Shown piece by piece: positions 1,944 to 32,361 of a stretch of 64,000 bases of DNA (position 1 is its first letter; each line of letters starts with the position of its first letter). The translations under genes and the position numbers were made by a program. Below the pieces are notes generated by a model, which was not told the origin of the DNA, searched no databases, and worked only from the letters and a program-made list of their open reading frames with translations. Source of the DNA: Patescibacteria group bacterium (GTDB lineage: Bacteria > Patescibacteriota > Minisyncoccia > UBA6257 > 2-01-FULL-56-20); contig JANLHI010000030.1 of the NCBI GenBank assembly GCA_024654525.1, forward strand, positions 2,886-66,885. Direction: 5' to 3'.

Positions 1944-1997
1944 CGGGATAAGTATACTGGATTGTCCACCTCTGTCAACCTATGCTAGGATATTGCC

Positions 1998-2636
1998 ATG
2001 GATACACCGCTTACCAGGCGGACAGTTGAAACCTACCTCCCCGTCTTACGGGCTATTTATGCATCCATTGAGGTTTCCGTTACAACCGCAAGTCGGCTGG
2101 AGAACAGGGACGACCTTTATTTCTTTTATCTGGGAAAAGAATTCGGAACCTCCAATATTTTACACACCACATATCTACTCAAACTTTGGCTGAAGGACTC
2201 TCGCGACTTCGAGATGAGGCCGATGATGTTCCACAAAAAGAATAGGAAAGCGAAGTGGGTCGACCTTATCAAATTGCTTGATGAAAAAATTACGGAATAT
2301 CACGACGGCGTCCCTATCATTGAGGTTGGTATCCATCGCAACGGGCGTGTCGTTCGAGAGTTTATGGGACAAAAACTTATTCATGACTTTGGAAGCGACG
2401 GGCTCAAAAGAAAAGTTGTATCTTATCTCGCTGGGCGCGGCAGTTTTACGAAAACTCCGGAAATCCAAAAGTATATCGGTTCGAAGAGTACCGAGTCCGC
2501 TGTGAAGGCAATTCGTTCTATCAACTCAACTCTTCGTTTGCGTCTCCAGTTTCCGAAGAAGCAAAAATTCATCGATAGTAAGCGGGGTTCCGGTTACGGC
2601 ATTAACCCGATTTACAACGTGGTTTTGTTGGATTAG
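1998..2636 (+). CDS. Hypothetical protein transcribed divergently from lexA
   Basis: 212-aa ORF with no recognisable motifs. It shares the divergent promoter region with lexA. Confidence 0.45.
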   Translation: MDTPLTRRTVETYLPVLRAIYASIEVSVTTASRLENRDDLYFFYLGKEFGTSNILHTTYLLKLWLKDSRDFEMRPMMFHKKNRKAKWVDLIKLLDEKITEYHDGVPIIEVGIHRNGRVVREFMGQKLIHDFGSDGLKRKVVSYLAGRGSFTKTPEIQKYIGSKSTESAVKAIRSINSTLRLRLQFPKKQKFIDSKRGSGYGINPIYNVVLLD

Positions 2637-2784
2637 ACGACCTCCCCGCATCCGGTGTGGATAACTATTTTTAGAACCTTGTTTTACAAGGTTTTTTTGT
2701 GTGGACAGTTCCAGATGTGTTCCATATAAGTCACGTTCCGAATAGGAGAAGATATAAAAGTCGAAAAAACAAAAAAATAAACCT

Positions 2785-4062
2785 ATGCCTGCACAAAAAC
2801 TTTCATGGAGGAACGAAGTGCGTCGGGTTTCGGATCTCGTGCCGAATCCGAAAAACCCTCGTTCCATCTCGCCGAAGCAGATGGAGGACTTGAAGCGCAG
2901 TCTCAAGAAATTCGGCCTGGTCGAATTGCCCGCGATAAACACTAACAACAGAATCTTGGCCGGACACCAACGCCTCCTCGCGCTCCAACTCCTCGGACGC
3001 GGTGACGAAAAGATTCCCGTTCGCGTGCCAACGCGCCCGCTCACAAAGAAGGAATACGATCAATATCTTCTGACCAGTAACCGCGTCCACGGTGAATGGG
3101 ATTATCAAATGCTCGCCGAGCAATTCGATGTCGAAATGCTCCTCGCCTCAGGCTTTGACGACGGGGATCTCTCGGTTATTTTCGACGATCTTCAAGTGGA
3201 AGACGACGAATTCGATCCGGAAAAAGAATTAAAGAAGATAAAGAAAACGGATGTGAAGCCGGGAAGTCTCTACCAACTGGGACCGCACCGTATTCTTTGT
3301 GGCGACAGCACCAATTCCGAAGTCGTCAAGAAACTCATGGGCGGCAAGAGTGCGGCGGTCATTCTCCAAGATCCCCCGTACAACATCGGTCTCAGCTATA
3401 ACAAAGGCATCGGCGGGAAAGGTAATTACGGCGGTGAAACGAACGACGCGAAGTCAGACGAAGAATATGAATCATTTCTCCGCAAAGCCCTTGCGAATGG
3501 CGTCGACGCCTGCGAGAAGGACGCACACGTGTTCACATACCACGATCCCCGCTACACCTGGCTTTTGCAAAAACTTTACAAAGAGCTGGGCATCGCGTAC
3601 AAGCGGACGTGTTTGTGGGTAAAAAATAATTCTACGCCCACACCTAACGTCGCCTTCAATCGCCAATATGAACCGGCGCTCTACGGCGTTATCGGGAAAC
3701 CGTATCTTTCGGAGCGATCATTCAATTTTTCCGAGATCTTAAACCGCGATGTTGGGATCGGTAATCGCACCATAGACGACATTTACGATTTGATAGACAT
3801 CTGGCTCGTAAAGCGGCTCGGCGGTTCGGAGTATGAGCATCCCACTGAAAAGCCGCCCATGCTGCACGAGCGGCCGCTGCGGCGTTGCACTAAGCCGGGA
3901 GATATCGTGCTTGATCTGTTCTCTGGTTCATCCAGTATTATGGTCGCTTGCCACGGGTTGAAGCGCATCGCGTATATGGTCGAACGCGAGCCGATTTTCG
4001 TTCAATTATCGCTAAACAGATATGCCAAACTTACGGGAGAAAAAGCAAAAAGGATCGCCTAA
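2785..4062 (+). CDS. ParB-like nuclease domain fused to an N6-adenine/N4-cytosine DNA methyltransferase (phage-type)
   Basis: N-terminal VPNPKNPR...ILAGHQRLLA matches a ParB N-terminal domain. The DPPY motif (ILQDPPYN) and C-terminal HPTEKP...DLFSGSSS (motif I) indicate a beta-class amino-MTase. Confidence 0.8.
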   Translation: MPAQKLSWRNEVRRVSDLVPNPKNPRSISPKQMEDLKRSLKKFGLVELPAINTNNRILAGHQRLLALQLLGRGDEKIPVRVPTRPLTKKEYDQYLLTSNRVHGEWDYQMLAEQFDVEMLLASGFDDGDLSVIFDDLQVEDDEFDPEKELKKIKKTDVKPGSLYQLGPHRILCGDSTNSEVVKKLMGGKSAAVILQDPPYNIGLSYNKGIGGKGNYGGETNDAKSDEEYESFLRKALANGVDACEKDAHVFTYHDPRYTWLLQKLYKELGIAYKRTCLWVKNNSTPTPNVAFNRQYEPALYGVIGKPYLSERSFNFSEILNRDVGIGNRTIDDIYDLIDIWLVKRLGGSEYEHPTEKPPMLHERPLRRCTKPGDIVLDLFSGSSSIMVACHGLKRIAYMVEREPIFVQLSLNRYAKLTGEKAKRIA

Positions 4063-4795
4063 GCCCGGCACGATCTGGCAGCTTGGCGATCATCGCTTGG
4101 CTTACGGCGACGCTCGCGACAAAGAGTTACTGAAGCGACTTATCGGCGTGGAGAAAATAAACCTTGTCTGTTGCGACGTTCCATACGGAGTGGATGTCGC
4201 AGCGTCAAAGCGCAACTTCCGCACGCTTTCTAAAGACAGAGATATTGCTAACGACCAATTGCAGTCGGACGACGAGTATCGGAAGTTTACAAGCGACTGG
4301 CTGCAGGCGGTATCGTCGTTTCTTGCCGCCAAAAACTCCGCCTACATATTTAATGCCGATAAGATGGTTTGGTCTTTGCGGGACGGCATGATTGATTCCG
4401 GTTTCAAGGTGGCCCAACTTCTTATTTGGATCAAATCTCAAGCAGTGGTAGGACGACTTGATTATTCTCCGCAGCACGAGCTTATCCTCTACGGCTGGCG
4501 CGGAACGCATAAATACCGCCGCTCAAAAGACAAAAGCGTCTTGTTCTATCCGCGGCCGTCGAAAAGCAAACTACATCCGACGACCAAACCCATTGGTCTT
4601 ATCCGGAGGCTTATTCTTAACTCCTCGGAAATCGGTGGTGCGGTCTACGACGGGTTTTTAGGCAGCGGTACTCTGCTTTTGGCTTGTGAGGAAACGCGCC
4701 GCAAATGCTTCGCAGTTGAGATTGATCCCGAGTATTGTCTCACGTCAATTTTCCAATGGGAGCGCCTGACCGGTAAAAAAGCAGAGCAGATATGA
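4022..4795 (+). CDS. DNA methyltransferase (N6A/N4C, beta-class)
   Basis: DVPY motif (CCDVPYGV) and HPTTKP...YDGFLGSGT motif I. It overlaps the upstream MTase by ~40 nt. Confidence 0.8.
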   Translation: MPNLREKKQKGSPKPGTIWQLGDHRLAYGDARDKELLKRLIGVEKINLVCCDVPYGVDVAASKRNFRTLSKDRDIANDQLQSDDEYRKFTSDWLQAVSSFLAAKNSAYIFNADKMVWSLRDGMIDSGFKVAQLLIWIKSQAVVGRLDYSPQHELILYGWRGTHKYRRSKDKSVLFYPRPSKSKLHPTTKPIGLIRRLILNSSEIGGAVYDGFLGSGTLLLACEETRRKCFAVEIDPEYCLTSIFQWERLTGKKAEQI

Positions 4796-5235
4796 AAAAG
4801 ACCGATCACATAAAAGAGCTGCTTATAGATCAGCTGCGCAGGACGCCAATCGTTGAGGCCGCTTGTCAGAAAGCGAACATTTCCCGCATGACGTTTTATC
4901 GTTGGAAAAATGAGGACAAAGAATTCGCAAAAAAGGTCGACGAGGCGCTTTCCGACGGGCAGCTTCTTGTGAACGATCTCGCCGAAAGCCAGCTTATTGG
5001 CGCGGTCAAAGATCGGAATTTTCAAGCGATTGCCTATTGGCTCAAACACCACCATCCGAGCTACAAAACGCGTATTGAAATCGAGGGAGCGCTCAACACC
5101 GTGCACGAACTTTCACCAGAACAAGAAAAACTTATGCGAAAAGCGTTTGAACTGGCAGGCATTAACATTGATGACTACGAAGAAGCACGAGATACGAGTC
5201 AAAAAAGTAACCAACTAAAACAAATCAATGAGTAA
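4792..5235 (+). CDS. Phage terminase small subunit-like HTH protein
   Basis: HTH ISRMTFYRWKNEDKEF, an ATGA overlap with the upstream gene, and a position directly upstream of TerL. Confidence 0.5.
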   Translation: MKKTDHIKELLIDQLRRTPIVEAACQKANISRMTFYRWKNEDKEFAKKVDEALSDGQLLVNDLAESQLIGAVKDRNFQAIAYWLKHHHPSYKTRIEIEGALNTVHELSPEQEKLMRKAFELAGINIDDYEEARDTSQKSNQLKQINE

Positions 5236-6712
5236 CAATTCTGACGACGATAAAAACGTTTTTGAAGCCATCGCAAAAGACCGCGTTCTTCGGCAGCAGC
5301 TTGGTCAGCGCAGCCATCACATGTTTTTCGTAATGTACTTTCCGCACTACATCAAATACCCCGTGGCGGAATTTCACAAAGATATTTTTCGCATCACCGA
5401 AGATCAGTCGACGAATCTTGCCTGCATCGTGGCGTTCAGGGGAAGCGGCAAGAGCACGCTAGTAACTTTTTCATATTCTCTCTGGTCGATCCTTGGCATC
5501 CAGCAAAAAAAGTTTGTCCTTATTATCTGTCAGACCCAAGCTCAGGCCAGACAGCACATGGCCAATCTCAAATTTGAGCTTGAGCAGAATACCCTCCTCA
5601 AAAGCGACATGGGACCGTTCCGCGAGGAAGCCGGCGACGGCCAGTGGGCCATATCGTCTCTTGTGTTCAAAAACACTGGAGCTCGGATAATGATCGCTTC
5701 AATAGATCAAAGTATTCGAGGTATTCGCCACCACGAATACCGCCCCGACCTTATCATTCTGGACGACATTGAGGACAGTAATTCCGTGAAAACCTTCGAG
5801 GGCCGCATCAAAATATCCGATTGGTTTTCCCGAGAGGTGGTGCCGCTCGGGGATATCGGAACTCGCATCATTCTCGTTGGCAACCTTCTTCACGAAGCCG
5901 CGCTTACGATAAGTCTCCGAAACAAAATTGACCGCAAAGAAATACGCGGCACCTACCGTTGGTTTCCGCTCATCGACGAAAGCGGAGCATGCCTGTGGCC
6001 AGGTAAATTTGATACGTCGGATAAAATTGAGGCTCTTCGTCAAAGCGTTGGCAACGAAATAGCCTGGCAGCAAGAGTATCTTCTCAATATTGTCTCTGAC
6101 AGCTCTCGTGTCATATTCCCGGAGTGGATTCGCTACTACGACGAGCTGCCCAGCGAAACATTGCGGAGTATCCACGTGGGCGTTGATCTGGCCATATCCC
6201 AGCGGGAAGGAGCCGATTTCACGGCAATGGTTGGCTTACGCCGCTATGGATACGGCAACACCATGCGTCTCTACGTGATTCCGAACCCGTTTAACAAGCG
6301 GGTGCCGTTTCCCGAAGTAGTGGCTACCATAAAAACTCTTGATCGAACGTTCAAAGCCAAAGGAGAGCATGCCAAATTCATTGTTGAGTCGAATGGTTTT
6401 CAAGAAATCTATGTGCACGCGGTAAGCGACAGCGGTTGCGACGTTAAGGGCGTAAAGCATACTGGGGACAAGCGTTCGCGACTGGCACTCACGAGCCAGC
6501 TTATTCAAAACGGTACGATTGTATTTCCGCGCCGTGGAGCGGAAGAACTTATCGCGCAACTCACGGGGTTTGGGGTAGAAAACCATGATGATTTGGCGGA
6601 TGGGTATAGCACCGCTGTACTCGATGTTATGAATGACATAGAAAACGACCGGGGTTGGGAGGCATGGATGCAGTGGGTGAAAAGCAATGGCGGAAGTTGT
6701 CAGATTAGGTAG
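5228..6712 (+). CDS. Phage terminase large subunit
   Basis: Walker A AFRGSGKST, Walker B LIILDDIED, and C-terminal RNaseH-like nuclease acidic motifs (VGVDLA, HDDLADG). Confidence 0.8.
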   Translation: MSNNSDDDKNVFEAIAKDRVLRQQLGQRSHHMFFVMYFPHYIKYPVAEFHKDIFRITEDQSTNLACIVAFRGSGKSTLVTFSYSLWSILGIQQKKFVLIICQTQAQARQHMANLKFELEQNTLLKSDMGPFREEAGDGQWAISSLVFKNTGARIMIASIDQSIRGIRHHEYRPDLIILDDIEDSNSVKTFEGRIKISDWFSREVVPLGDIGTRIILVGNLLHEAALTISLRNKIDRKEIRGTYRWFPLIDESGACLWPGKFDTSDKIEALRQSVGNEIAWQQEYLLNIVSDSSRVIFPEWIRYYDELPSETLRSIHVGVDLAISQREGADFTAMVGLRRYGYGNTMRLYVIPNPFNKRVPFPEVVATIKTLDRTFKAKGEHAKFIVESNGFQEIYVHAVSDSGCDVKGVKHTGDKRSRLALTSQLIQNGTIVFPRRGAEELIAQLTGFGVENHDDLADGYSTAVLDVMNDIENDRGWEAWMQWVKSNGGSCQIR

Positions 6713-30913: not shown

Positions 30914-30969
30914 CCCGTTGCTTCTCAGTATATGATTTGATAGAGTGGTAGCGCATGAGTCGTTTTTTT

Positions 30970-31045
30970 GCCACCTTAGCTCAGCTGGTAGAGCAACACT
31001 TTTGTAAAGTGAAGGTCCCCGGTTCGAATCCGGGAGGTGGCTCCA
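30970..31045 (+). tRNA. tRNA-Thr(TGT) with encoded CCA
   Basis: Acceptor GCCACCT/AGGTGGC, anticodon loop TTTGTAA, T-arm CCCGG-TTCGAAT-CCGGG. Confidence 0.7.
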
Positions 31046-31205
31046 GTTTTGTAGAAAAAGATACGGAAGACCCAAAGCATGGGATTTCTTCCCTTGAACT
31101 CCTCCTCCCCCGCGCCACCCGAACAAATAGGGAAAAATCAAGGTATGGAGTTTTGACTGCACGTGTGAGTAATAGTAAGCTTAAGCGTGCGATTGATAAT
31201 ATGTT

Positions 31206-31471
31206 GCCGATGTAGCTCAGCTGGCAGAGCAACTCCATGGTAGACGAATCCTGCCCATCCCGACGGTAACGTCCGGATGAATCCTGAATTACGGTTAAAG
31301 GCCCGCACGGGGTTCAGACCGTAGCGCTTCTTGCGCTCGAACGACTGACAAGGGTTTCCTCGTGTTATCGAGGAGAAAGATACAGTCTAATCCTTCCGCA
31401 TATGTGTATATCGAAAAGGGAAGGTAGTAATGAAGGAGTAGGTCGCCGGTTCAAATCCGGCCATCGGCTCA
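31206..31471 (+). tRNA. tRNA interrupted by a group I intron in the anticodon loop. The most consistent reading is tRNA-Thr(GGT).
   Basis: The 5' exon GCCGATGTAGCTCAGCTGGCAGAGCAACTCCATGGT and the 3' exon AAGGAGTAGGTCGCCGGTTCAAATCCGGCCATCGGCT form a perfect cloverleaf once ~191 nt are removed. Confidence 0.65.
31242..31432 (+). ncRNA. Group I intron (~191 nt, no ORF)
   Basis: It contains sequences resembling the P, R and S core elements: aattacggttaaagg, gggttcagaccgtagc and aaagatacagtct. It ends in G before exon 2. Confidence 0.55.
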
Positions 31472-31554
31472 GGTGTGTGAAATAGAGATGTTTTTGCGTA
31501 TCTCTTGAAATTAGGAAATAAATGGAGTATCCTTTATTTGTTTAAACAAATTCA

Positions 31555-31833: not shown

Positions 31834-31904
31834 GGGGGCATCGTTCAGTGGTAGGACAGCGGTCTCCAAAACCGCCAACCTGGGTTCGATTCCTAGTGCC
31901 CCCG
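31834..31904 (+). tRNA. tRNA-Trp(CCA)
   Basis: Acceptor GGGGGCA/TGCCCCC, anticodon loop CTCCAAA, T-arm CTGGG-TTCGATT-CCTAG. Confidence 0.8.
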
Positions 31905-31963
31905 CCTTCGCCCGCCATAGCTTTAGCGACGGCGGGATTCGCTAAGCTATGTCGGGCTTCGGC
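31899..31963 (+). repeat. 65-nt direct repeat, copy 1. It starts in the last 6 nt of tRNA-Trp.
   Basis: Sequence cccccgccttcgcccgccatagctttagcgAcggcgggattcgctaagctatgtcgggcttcggc. It is identical to copy 2 except for one position and contains internal inverted repeats. Confidence 0.8.
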
Positions 31964-31979: not shown

Positions 31980-32234
31980 ATGAGGTATTATATTTTCATG
32001 CATTTCGTATATATTCTGAAATGTGCCGACACTTTCAATTATGTGGGTTGCACTAACAACATCGAAGACAGATTAGAGCGTCACAGTAAAGGACAAGTTG
32101 AGGCAACTAAGAGTAGGCTTCCAATTGAATTGGTTTCCTACGTTGCTTTCGAAAATAAATACAAAGCTTACGAATTTGAAAAATATCTCAAGTCCGGTTC
32201 GGGTCGAGCATTTATCAAAAAACACCTTGCGTGA
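31980..32234 (+). CDS. GIY-YIG nuclease family small protein (84 aa)
   Basis: MRYYIFMHFVYILKC...YVGCTNNIEDRLERHSKG and the C-terminal EKYLKSGSGRAFIKKHL. The ORF-track start at 31848 lies inside the tRNA, so Met45 was taken as the start. Confidence 0.7.
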   Translation: MRYYIFMHFVYILKCADTFNYVGCTNNIEDRLERHSKGQVEATKSRLPIELVSYVAFENKYKAYEFEKYLKSGSGRAFIKKHLA

Positions 32235-32296
32235 GATTCCCTTTATTTCGCCGAAGCTCAAAAAGCAAAGGCGAAGTTGAACCGTTAGGTTTACTA

Positions 32297-32361
32297 CCCC
32301 CGCCTTCGCCCGCCATAGCTTTAGCGGCGGCGGGATTCGCTAAGCTATGTCGGGCTTCGGC
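32297..32361 (+). repeat. 65-nt direct repeat, copy 2
   Basis: Same sequence as 31899-31963 with a single A/G difference. Confidence 0.8.

Follow-up and report, generated by a model that had tools for sequence, protein, structure and literature searches.

A further member of the divergent group I intron family of Patescibacterial tRNA-Thr(GGU) genes

When the two halves of a tRNA gene lie 191 nt apart and standard gene finders see neither the gene nor an intron, the question arises of whether the gene is intact and of what kind the intervening sequence is. The locus considered here lies in a stretch of 64,000 nt from a Patescibacteria group bacterium (GCA_024654525.1, contig JANLHI010000030.1, positions 2,886-66,885 of the forward strand), which was analyzed as a whole and is referred to as the window; coordinates given below are window positions, and all parts of the split gene lie on the plus strand. 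With introns allowed, ARAGORN called a tRNA-Thr(ggt) that is interrupted at tRNA position 37 by an intron of 191 nt. The 5' exon (31206-31241) comprises tRNA positions 1-36 and ends with the anticodon G34 G35 U36, the intron (31242-31432) starts with A and ends with G, and the 3' exon (31433-31469) comprises positions 37-73, with U as the discriminator base; CCA is not encoded at the 3' end, the next bases being CAG. After in silico splicing, ARAGORN folded the exons into a standard 7/4/5/5 cloverleaf with the anticodon loop AUGGUAA, in keeping with the perfect tRNA that a preliminary description of the locus had drawn from them. Neither default ARAGORN nor the Rfam tRNA model reported the split gene at 31206-31469; locally, they reported only a tRNA-Thr(UGU) (30970-31045) and a tRNA-Trp (31834-31906), and default ARAGORN found no second tRNA-Thr(GGU) within the 64-kb window. 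According to the ORF list, no ORF is contained in the intron, which therefore does not home actively. The 5' halves of the two adjoining tRNA-Thr genes, (UGU) at 30968-31006 and (GGU) at 31204-31242, are 77% identical over 39 nt, a degree of likeness that is consistent with an old tandem duplication.

As the first base of the intron and the first base of the 3' exon are both A, the boundary is ambiguous by 1 nt when judged by the sequence alone; we place the junction at 36/37 because the rule of a U at position -1 and a terminal G settles this ambiguity. The same junction is fixed by orthologous loci. The ribosomal protein L33 gene (rpmG, identified via Pfam) lies 86 nt downstream of the split tRNA, and the nearest L33 homologs (93-81% identity) are from Candidatus Liptonbacteria/Paceibacterota (Patescibacteria). 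Via these homologs, we retrieved 15 related loci, 11 of which show the same order as the window, tRNA-Thr(UGU) - tRNA-Thr(GGU) - rpmG - tRNA-Trp (counting L002, in which tRNA-Thr(UGU) is cut off at the contig end). Judging by the 93% identity between its L33 and a protein of Candidatus Liptonbacteria and by the syntenic tRNA cluster, the host is a Liptonbacteria-like (Paceibacteria, Patescibacteria) bacterium. In all eleven syntenic loci tRNA-Thr(GGU) is uninterrupted, and the anticodon arm AACTCCATGGTAAGGAGTAGGTC of L011-L015, with L011 an intronless ortholog, is identical to that of the spliced window product. The intronless Liptonbacteria orthologs, one of them with an identical anticodon arm, thus fix the junction at 36/37. 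Given the matching gene order and arm, the split gene is the tRNA-Thr(GGU) ortholog, the 191 nt are an insertion, and the readings as His(GUG) or Pro(GGG), which the preliminary description had allowed for a shifted 5' splice site, are wrong. The comparison with related genomes that it had proposed hence came out in favor of its own preferred reading, with uninterrupted tRNA-Thr(GGU) genes at syntenic Liptonbacteria loci. The intron is absent from these close relatives and present in another Liptonbacteria genome (L050); this patchy presence indicates sporadic loss or gain.

Downstream of the split gene, the cluster may hold a further insertion. A 70-nt direct repeat (31894-31963 and 32292-32361; 96% identical, 398 nt apart) begins within the final 13 nt of tRNA-Trp, and its two copies enclose a small ORF with a GIY-YIG domain (31983-32234, plus strand; Pfam PF01541, E 1e-13). 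In related loci, a small GIY-YIG gene likewise occupies varying places in the cluster, following tRNA-Trp in L003 and lying between tRNA-Thr(GGU) and rpmG in L007. The ORF and its repeats have the appearance of a small mobile cassette with a target duplication, distinct from the intron.

The intron is one of a large family. Species-representative genomes were scanned for the pattern GAACGACTG-N17-47-AAGATACAGTC, which yielded at least 120 matching loci. Among the 120 matches listed, 118 carry the same intron family and only two, L016 and L041, are chance matches. In 114 of the 120, the split tRNA can be read as ...UGGU/intron...G/AA... with a 5-bp anticodon stem; four of the remaining six were recognized as family members by covariance model, being truncated at the end of the locus or showing one stem mismatch. 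All 114 listed loci with both splice sites mapped are tRNA-Thr(GGU) genes with an insertion at 36/37, U at -1 and a terminal G, as found in the window, and their introns measure 158-266 nt (median 194). Before splicing, ARAGORN often labels members Arg(gcg) 34/35, His(gtg) or Pro(ggg). The Arg(GCG) reading was rejected, as every member can be read as UGGU/...G/AA and the spliced products were called tRNA-Thr(ggt) by ARAGORN in 112 of the 114 listed loci. The 114 mapped members likewise exclude His(GUG) and Pro(GGG) and uphold splicing after U36 and before A37. Patescibacteria make up the overwhelming majority of the listed hosts (Saccharibacteria, Paceibacteria, Moranii-, Yanofsky-, Kaiser-, Wolfe-, Nomura-, Doudna- and Peregrinibacteria, among others), and 35 of the 114 listed loci share with the window a downstream rpmG of the same orientation. 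The closest relative of the window intron among the matches listed is about 70% identical.

Ten of the listed members are in records not labelled Patescibacteria (L071, L024, L054, L059, L061, L075, L085, L087, L107 and L112). L071 lies on a 300-kb contig of the cultured Bacteroidota isolate Niastella populi CCTCC AB 208238 (NZ_LWBP01000002.1, 5222-5426, minus strand); the others include a Pedobacter MAG (1.4-kb contig, possibly mis-binned), a Bdellovibrionales MAG and several 'Gammaproteobacteria' MAGs with contigs of up to 638 kb. If those records are genuine, the family is not restricted to one phylum and a cultivable host exists.

The secondary structure was written from the window sequence, with the P3 and P7 pseudoknot in separate brackets, and counted over an alignment (A1) of 114 distinct introns with 12-nt exon flanks. 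Over 56 pairs, 92.5% of the cells are paired, compared with 31-43% when the partners were slid by 1-3 columns; the covariation score is 0.46 versus 0.07-0.10 in the slid controls, 39 of the 56 pairs show compensatory changes on both sides, and none of 500 shuffles reached any observed value. Moreover, RNAalifold independently recovered P4, P5, P6, P7 and P8 from a separate 48-sequence core alignment (A2), and an unconstrained minimum free energy fold of the window intron contained the inner part of P2 (G21-C32 to G24-C29), P4/P5, P6, P7, P8 and P9 (z = -3.3).

In P1 (31239-31255), the anticodon G34 G35 U36 (31239-31241) pairs with an internal guide, G12 C13 C14 (31253-31255), so that a U36.G12 wobble lies at the 5' splice site; the G34-C14, G35-C13 and U36.G12 pairs are invariant (114/114), which provides the pairing of the exon end with an internal guide that the preliminary description had looked for. 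On the intron side, the pairs A1-U11 and G2-C10, which both covary (GU/AU/GC/UA), close a short L1; the window intron is of this short-L1 sub-type. P2 (31256-31279) has 10 bp with one C.C mismatch and a GNRA tetraloop (GUAA, 31266-31269), and all ten pairs show compensatory changes. P3 is formed by CCU (31283-31285) and GGG (31352-31354) in a pseudoknot with P7; it has only 3 bp, yet is 99.7% paired, with CG/UA double changes at all three pairs. An extended P3 (AAUCCU/AGGGUU), which can be drawn in the window, was rejected, as those 3' bases belong to P8 throughout the family. The region 31286-31322 comprises J3/4 (GAAUU), P4 (ACGGUU/GACCGU), J4/5 (AAA), the P5 hairpin and J5/4, i.e. the P and Q elements. 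P4 is invariant across the 114 sequences and lies outside the search pattern, four of the five P5 pairs covary, and both helices were predicted independently by RNAalifold. The P6 hairpin (AGCGC UUCUU GCGCU, 31323-31337), also found by RNAalifold, shows compensatory changes in four of its five pairs.

The R element (31338-31351) consists of J6/7 (CGA), the 5' strand of P7 (A-(C bulge)-GACUG) and J7/3 (ACAA) and pairs with 31383-31388; it reads CGAACGACUGACA or, as J6/7 plus the P7 5' strand, CGAACGACTGACA at 31338-31350. The S element (31377-31388) consists of J8/7 (AAGAUA) and the P7 3' strand (CAGUCU) and matches canonical AAGAUAUAGUC, with in-register matches on canonical introns. P7 is invariant across the 114 sequences as well, the invariance of P7 and J8/7 being partly forced by the search pattern. 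Between the R and S elements, the P8 hairpin (UUUCCUCG ... CGAGGAGA, 31355-31376) covaries at all seven aligned pairs and was recovered by RNAalifold. After P7', A149 U150 (31390-31391) pair with A189 U190 (31430-31431), directly before the terminal G, to form a 2-bp P9.0 (region 31390-31431; 98.7% paired, 43 sequences with double changes per pair) that encloses P9 (31392-31424; six of six pairs covary). The intron ends with the terminal guanosine (omega-G) at 31432, as the preliminary description had stated, a G being found here in 114 of 114 members. P7.1/P7.2, peripheral elements of subgroup IA, are absent from the intron fold, and no convincing P10 can be drawn at the window locus: by inspection, at most 3-4 imperfect pairs form (AAGGA with UCCU 5' of the guide), and the anticodon stem requires these 3' exon bases as well. 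The intron thus combines a U.G wobble in P1, an omega-G, a core fold with a P3/P7 pseudoknot and a P9.0, the hallmarks of group I introns.

This structure changes one assignment of the preliminary description, which had taken GTTCAGACCGTAGC (31312-31325) for the R element. That segment is really J5/4, P4' and the start of P6, i.e. element Q, and pairs with the segment described as P-like. The proposed R/S pairing AGACCGU-ACAGUCU was rejected, as ACCGUA/UACGGU is the invariant P4 and GACUG/CAGUC is P7. The P-like and S elements had been placed correctly, the former pairing with Q as P4 and the latter with the true R.

A group I assignment would be expected to be mirrored in the Rfam model RF00028 (Intron_gpI), a search that the preliminary description had suggested. 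At the gathering score, RF00028 gave no match on the window, and at E<=10 on 31150-31520 Rfam cmscan returned no group I match but only weak tRNA half-matches. The model was also silent on 20 other loci carrying homologs of the window intron, and no match to the group II intron model was found in the same searches. The preliminary description had counted the lack of a covariance-model hit, combined with an impossible P1, against a group I intron, and by the first half of this measure the case would have looked weak. However, at viral loci retrieved with a canonical R...S pattern, RF00028 detected 25 introns with 57-109 bits, and its silence on the window is therefore not a fault of the tool. 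A match to RF00028 is a detection criterion, not a biological definition of a group I intron, and the missing match reflects the sequence divergence of the intron. This conclusion agrees with recent work on Patescibacterial tRNA introns (Nakagawa et al. 2026, mSystems; PMC13011429), according to which RF00028 cannot detect the introns of tRNA-Thr, while the gpI_bact_tRNA.cm model of tFind (Williams 2020) can.

Some of the retrieved loci showed peculiarities of their own. The viral contig L149 (IMGVR_UViG_3300037466_002091) carries 11 RF00028 introns within about 4 kb (1965-5866) on one strand, an unusually dense array, and L156 and L138 carry seven and six, respectively. In L026 (OY970216.1, 2771-6122), a 23S rRNA match spans 3352 nt, compared with 2925 positions of the model, probably due to an insertion of about 400 nt in the 23S rRNA gene that no Rfam intron model flagged.

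A link to canonical introns emerged from R1, a covariance model that describes the core of the family with 108 positions and 27 pairs. In the window, R1 matched only 31278-31391, with 107 bits by construction, as the window intron was in the training set, and any other match in the 64 kb had at most 7.4 bits; members outside the training set scored 97-107 bits. On 54 kb of viral DNA with RF00028 introns, R1 gave matches of 18.5, 15.2, 14.6, 11.7, 11.6, 10.9, 10.3 and 10.1 bits. Ten of its 15 top viral matches lie inside RF00028 matches on the same strand, and in seven minus-strand matches on L149 and L138 the 3' end of R1 falls at a constant distance of 17-18 nt from the RF00028 3' end. These cross-matches are weak (E 0.001-0.3) and their calibration is rough; the evidence lies in the co-location and the fixed register. 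The alignments set CGAACGACUG...AAGAUACAGUCUA of the family against canonical UCAACGACUA...AAGAUAUAGUCUA, with the true R in register with the UCAACGACUA R elements of RF00028-positive introns, and the R element AACGACU of the window family resembles that of the viral introns best matched by R1. Along these lines, the architecture captured by RF00028 is common to the window family, whose window copy and 20 other members nevertheless stay under every threshold of the model. In addition, P7, A-(C bulge)-G-A-C-U-G/C-A-G-U-C-U, with J8/7 AAGAUA, has the layout of the canonical (bulge)GACUA/UAGUC. In Tetrahymena and Azoarcus, guanosine is bound by a P7 G-C pair that follows a pair and a bulge. By likeness to these introns, we take G102-C146, next to the bulged C, to be the guanosine-binding site. 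Taken with the intronless orthologs, the at least 118 homologs and the covariation, the in-register matches to canonical introns bear out the proposal of a group I intron of about 191 nt in the anticodon loop.

Based on these results, we consider it very probable that 31242-31432 is a compact group I intron that lacks a homing-endonuclease gene, resides between U36 and A37 of tRNA-Thr(GGU) and is removed in the following way. P1 would arise in the precursor by pairing of the anticodon GGU with the invariant GCC guide at nt 12-14 of the intron; in this helix, the U36.G wobble would mark the 5' splice site, and the P4-P6 and P3-P8-P7 domains would fold around the P3/P7 pseudoknot. A free guanosine, held at the P7 G-C pair beside the bulged C, would then attack after U36. 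Subsequently, the terminal G191, positioned by the 2-bp P9.0, would take the place of the free guanosine, and the freed 3'-OH of U36 would attack after G191, joining the exons as mature tRNA-Thr(GGU). The anticodon stem would hold the exons together during joining. The exon/intron boundaries, the homology to a large intron family and, by covariation, the secondary structure are shown; that catalysis takes place, whether it needs no protein and which P7 pair binds the guanosine, we infer.

Several members differ from the window copy at the 5' end. In a long-L1 sub-type, whose introns start with GGGUC-GCA... (e.g. L047, L022, L019, L030 and L110), C5-N6-N7 of L1 can pair with the three bases at the intron end, the terminal G among them. 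This pairing (A1 columns 17 and 19-20 with 393-395) is 92% paired, with 40 double-change cells, compared with 9-41% in slid controls. The penultimate two bases also take part in P9.0 with J7/9, so that a three-way covariation links L1, J7/9 and the 3' end (GC/GC/GCG, GU/GU/ACG, AC/AC/GUG, AU/AU/AUG and UC/UC/GAG). The alternative pairing, which is absent from the window copy, may sequester the 3' end before the first step. A bolder reading, which we regard as rather unlikely, is that the subgroup is far wider than the three published cases and reaches outside Patescibacteria, as in the Niastella populi contig, and that the L1/omega-G pairing of the long-L1 sub-type competes with P9.0 and could serve as a switch that sets the order of the two splicing steps, or could render the maturation of tRNA-Thr dependent on conditions.

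Three other explanations of the window insert have to be weighed. One of them accepts the group I architecture and denies autonomous catalysis, the intron either requiring help from a host protein, for instance an aminoacyl-tRNA synthetase or some other chaperone, or being a slowly decaying, inefficiently spliced relic. It could invoke a core that is divergent (3-bp P3, altered P4/J4-5, minimal P1) to a degree that RF00028 no longer recognizes it, the mere 3 bp in both P3 and the exon part of P1, and the closest relatives, which lost or never had the intron. However, all core joining regions, P4 and P7 are the same in 114 species-level genomes, and compensatory changes maintain every helix, which speaks for strong selection to preserve a functional ribozyme fold. 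tRNA introns of equally small size, e.g. that of Azoarcus, self-splice. So do related Patescibacterial Asn and Asp introns in vitro, although these were the only ones for which splicing was tested and no Thr intron was among them (Nakagawa et al. 2026). We therefore consider a non-autonomous intron improbable.

Far less probable still are the two explanations that dispense with a group I intron. That default tRNA finders and Rfam see neither a tRNA nor an intron is what one would expect if a remnant of a mobile element or a MITE had inactivated the tRNA gene and left a pseudogene. Against this stand intact exons with a perfect tRNA fold, an insert that occupies exactly one phosphodiester in at least 114 species with a conserved, covarying structure and that has neither terminal repeats nor an ORF, and the lack of a second tRNA-Thr(GGU) in the 64-kb window; we give a pseudogene next to no chance. 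A protein-spliced BHB intron of the archaeal/eukaryal type would share the location in the anticodon loop, but BHB introns of tRNAs usually lie at 37/38, not at 36/37. No BHB motif can be drawn, the intron ends are engaged in P1 and P9.0, and the L33 neighbor marks the host as bacterial. For a group II intron, 191 nt are far too short and the corresponding model gave no match; neither type agrees with a P1-P9 fold with omega-G and U.G, and the likelihood of either appears negligible. The reading as a compact, presumably self-splicing group I intron is thus retained.

The gene is missed by standard annotation, i.e. default ARAGORN plus the tRNA and group I intron models of Rfam. As a result, genomes of this kind would be counted as devoid of tRNA-Thr(GGU), an error that could lend false weight to the view that Patescibacteria lack decoding capacity. 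The blind spot of RF00028 covers a whole, abundant intron family, for which our alignment and core model could seed a dedicated model. The window intron is also one more example of genome-reduced Patescibacteria keeping ribozyme introns in essential tRNA genes, and leaves the published picture unchanged.

Indeed, the window intron is a further member of a published family and not new in kind. Nakagawa et al. (2026; PMC13011429) list 36/37 introns of tRNA-Thr(GGU) in three complete Patescibacteria genomes (their Table 1), use the term "divergent group I introns", citing Castelle et al. 2018 (Nat Rev Microbiol), place the Thr introns on a long branch with IA-type Patescibacterial tRNA introns, find no Patescibacterial tRNA intron that classifies as IC, and note that ARAGORN miscalls two of the three published genomes as Arg(GCG) 34/35. 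The view of the preliminary description that a tRNA-Thr host would be unusual is thereby outdated, such introns being published and common in Patescibacteria. By description, the published Thr(GGU) introns agree with our family in host tRNA, anticodon, site, phylum, length (about 180-210 nt), silence of RF00028 and ARAGORN miscall. The complete Wolfebacteria genome CP011209.1 (L068), which is part of A1, shows the Arg(GCG) 34/35 miscall and aligns with the window over all core elements; the window intron has all 57 invariant columns of A1, CP011209.1 included. What sets the window copy apart from other Thr(GGU) members is its different sequence, its Liptonbacteria-like genome and its short-L1 sub-type. 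Our additions to the published work are incremental: a family that extends far beyond three genomes, a covariation-backed structure including P3 and P9.0, and some records not labelled Patescibacteria.

Other Patescibacterial tRNA introns, which RF00028 detects, are likewise compact, reside in the anticodon loop, mostly lack a homing-endonuclease gene and have a P1-P9 layout. They resemble the Thr family in J3/4-P4-J4/5 (cuaaUUCGGGGaaa versus gaauUACGGUUaaa) and in J8/7-P7' (GAUAAGAUAGUCC versus GAAAGAUACAGUCU). They differ in site and tRNA and have a canonical (G/U)AGAGACUA R element. In the Thr family, this element reads AACGACUG, P7 is closed by a G-C pair, P3 measures 3 bp and P4 is different. 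More distant counterparts are the introns of Azoarcus tRNA-Ile(CAU) and Agrobacterium tRNA-Arg(CCU), which Reinhold-Hurek and Shub are said to have reported in 1992 and which reportedly lie at 36/37 and belong to subgroup IC3. These introns are from other phyla and tRNAs and have an IC3 core that RF00028 detects, but, like the window intron, they follow the third base of the anticodon, have a P1 whose exon part is very short and made by the anticodon, measure about 200 nt, contain no ORF and have a GNRA L2.
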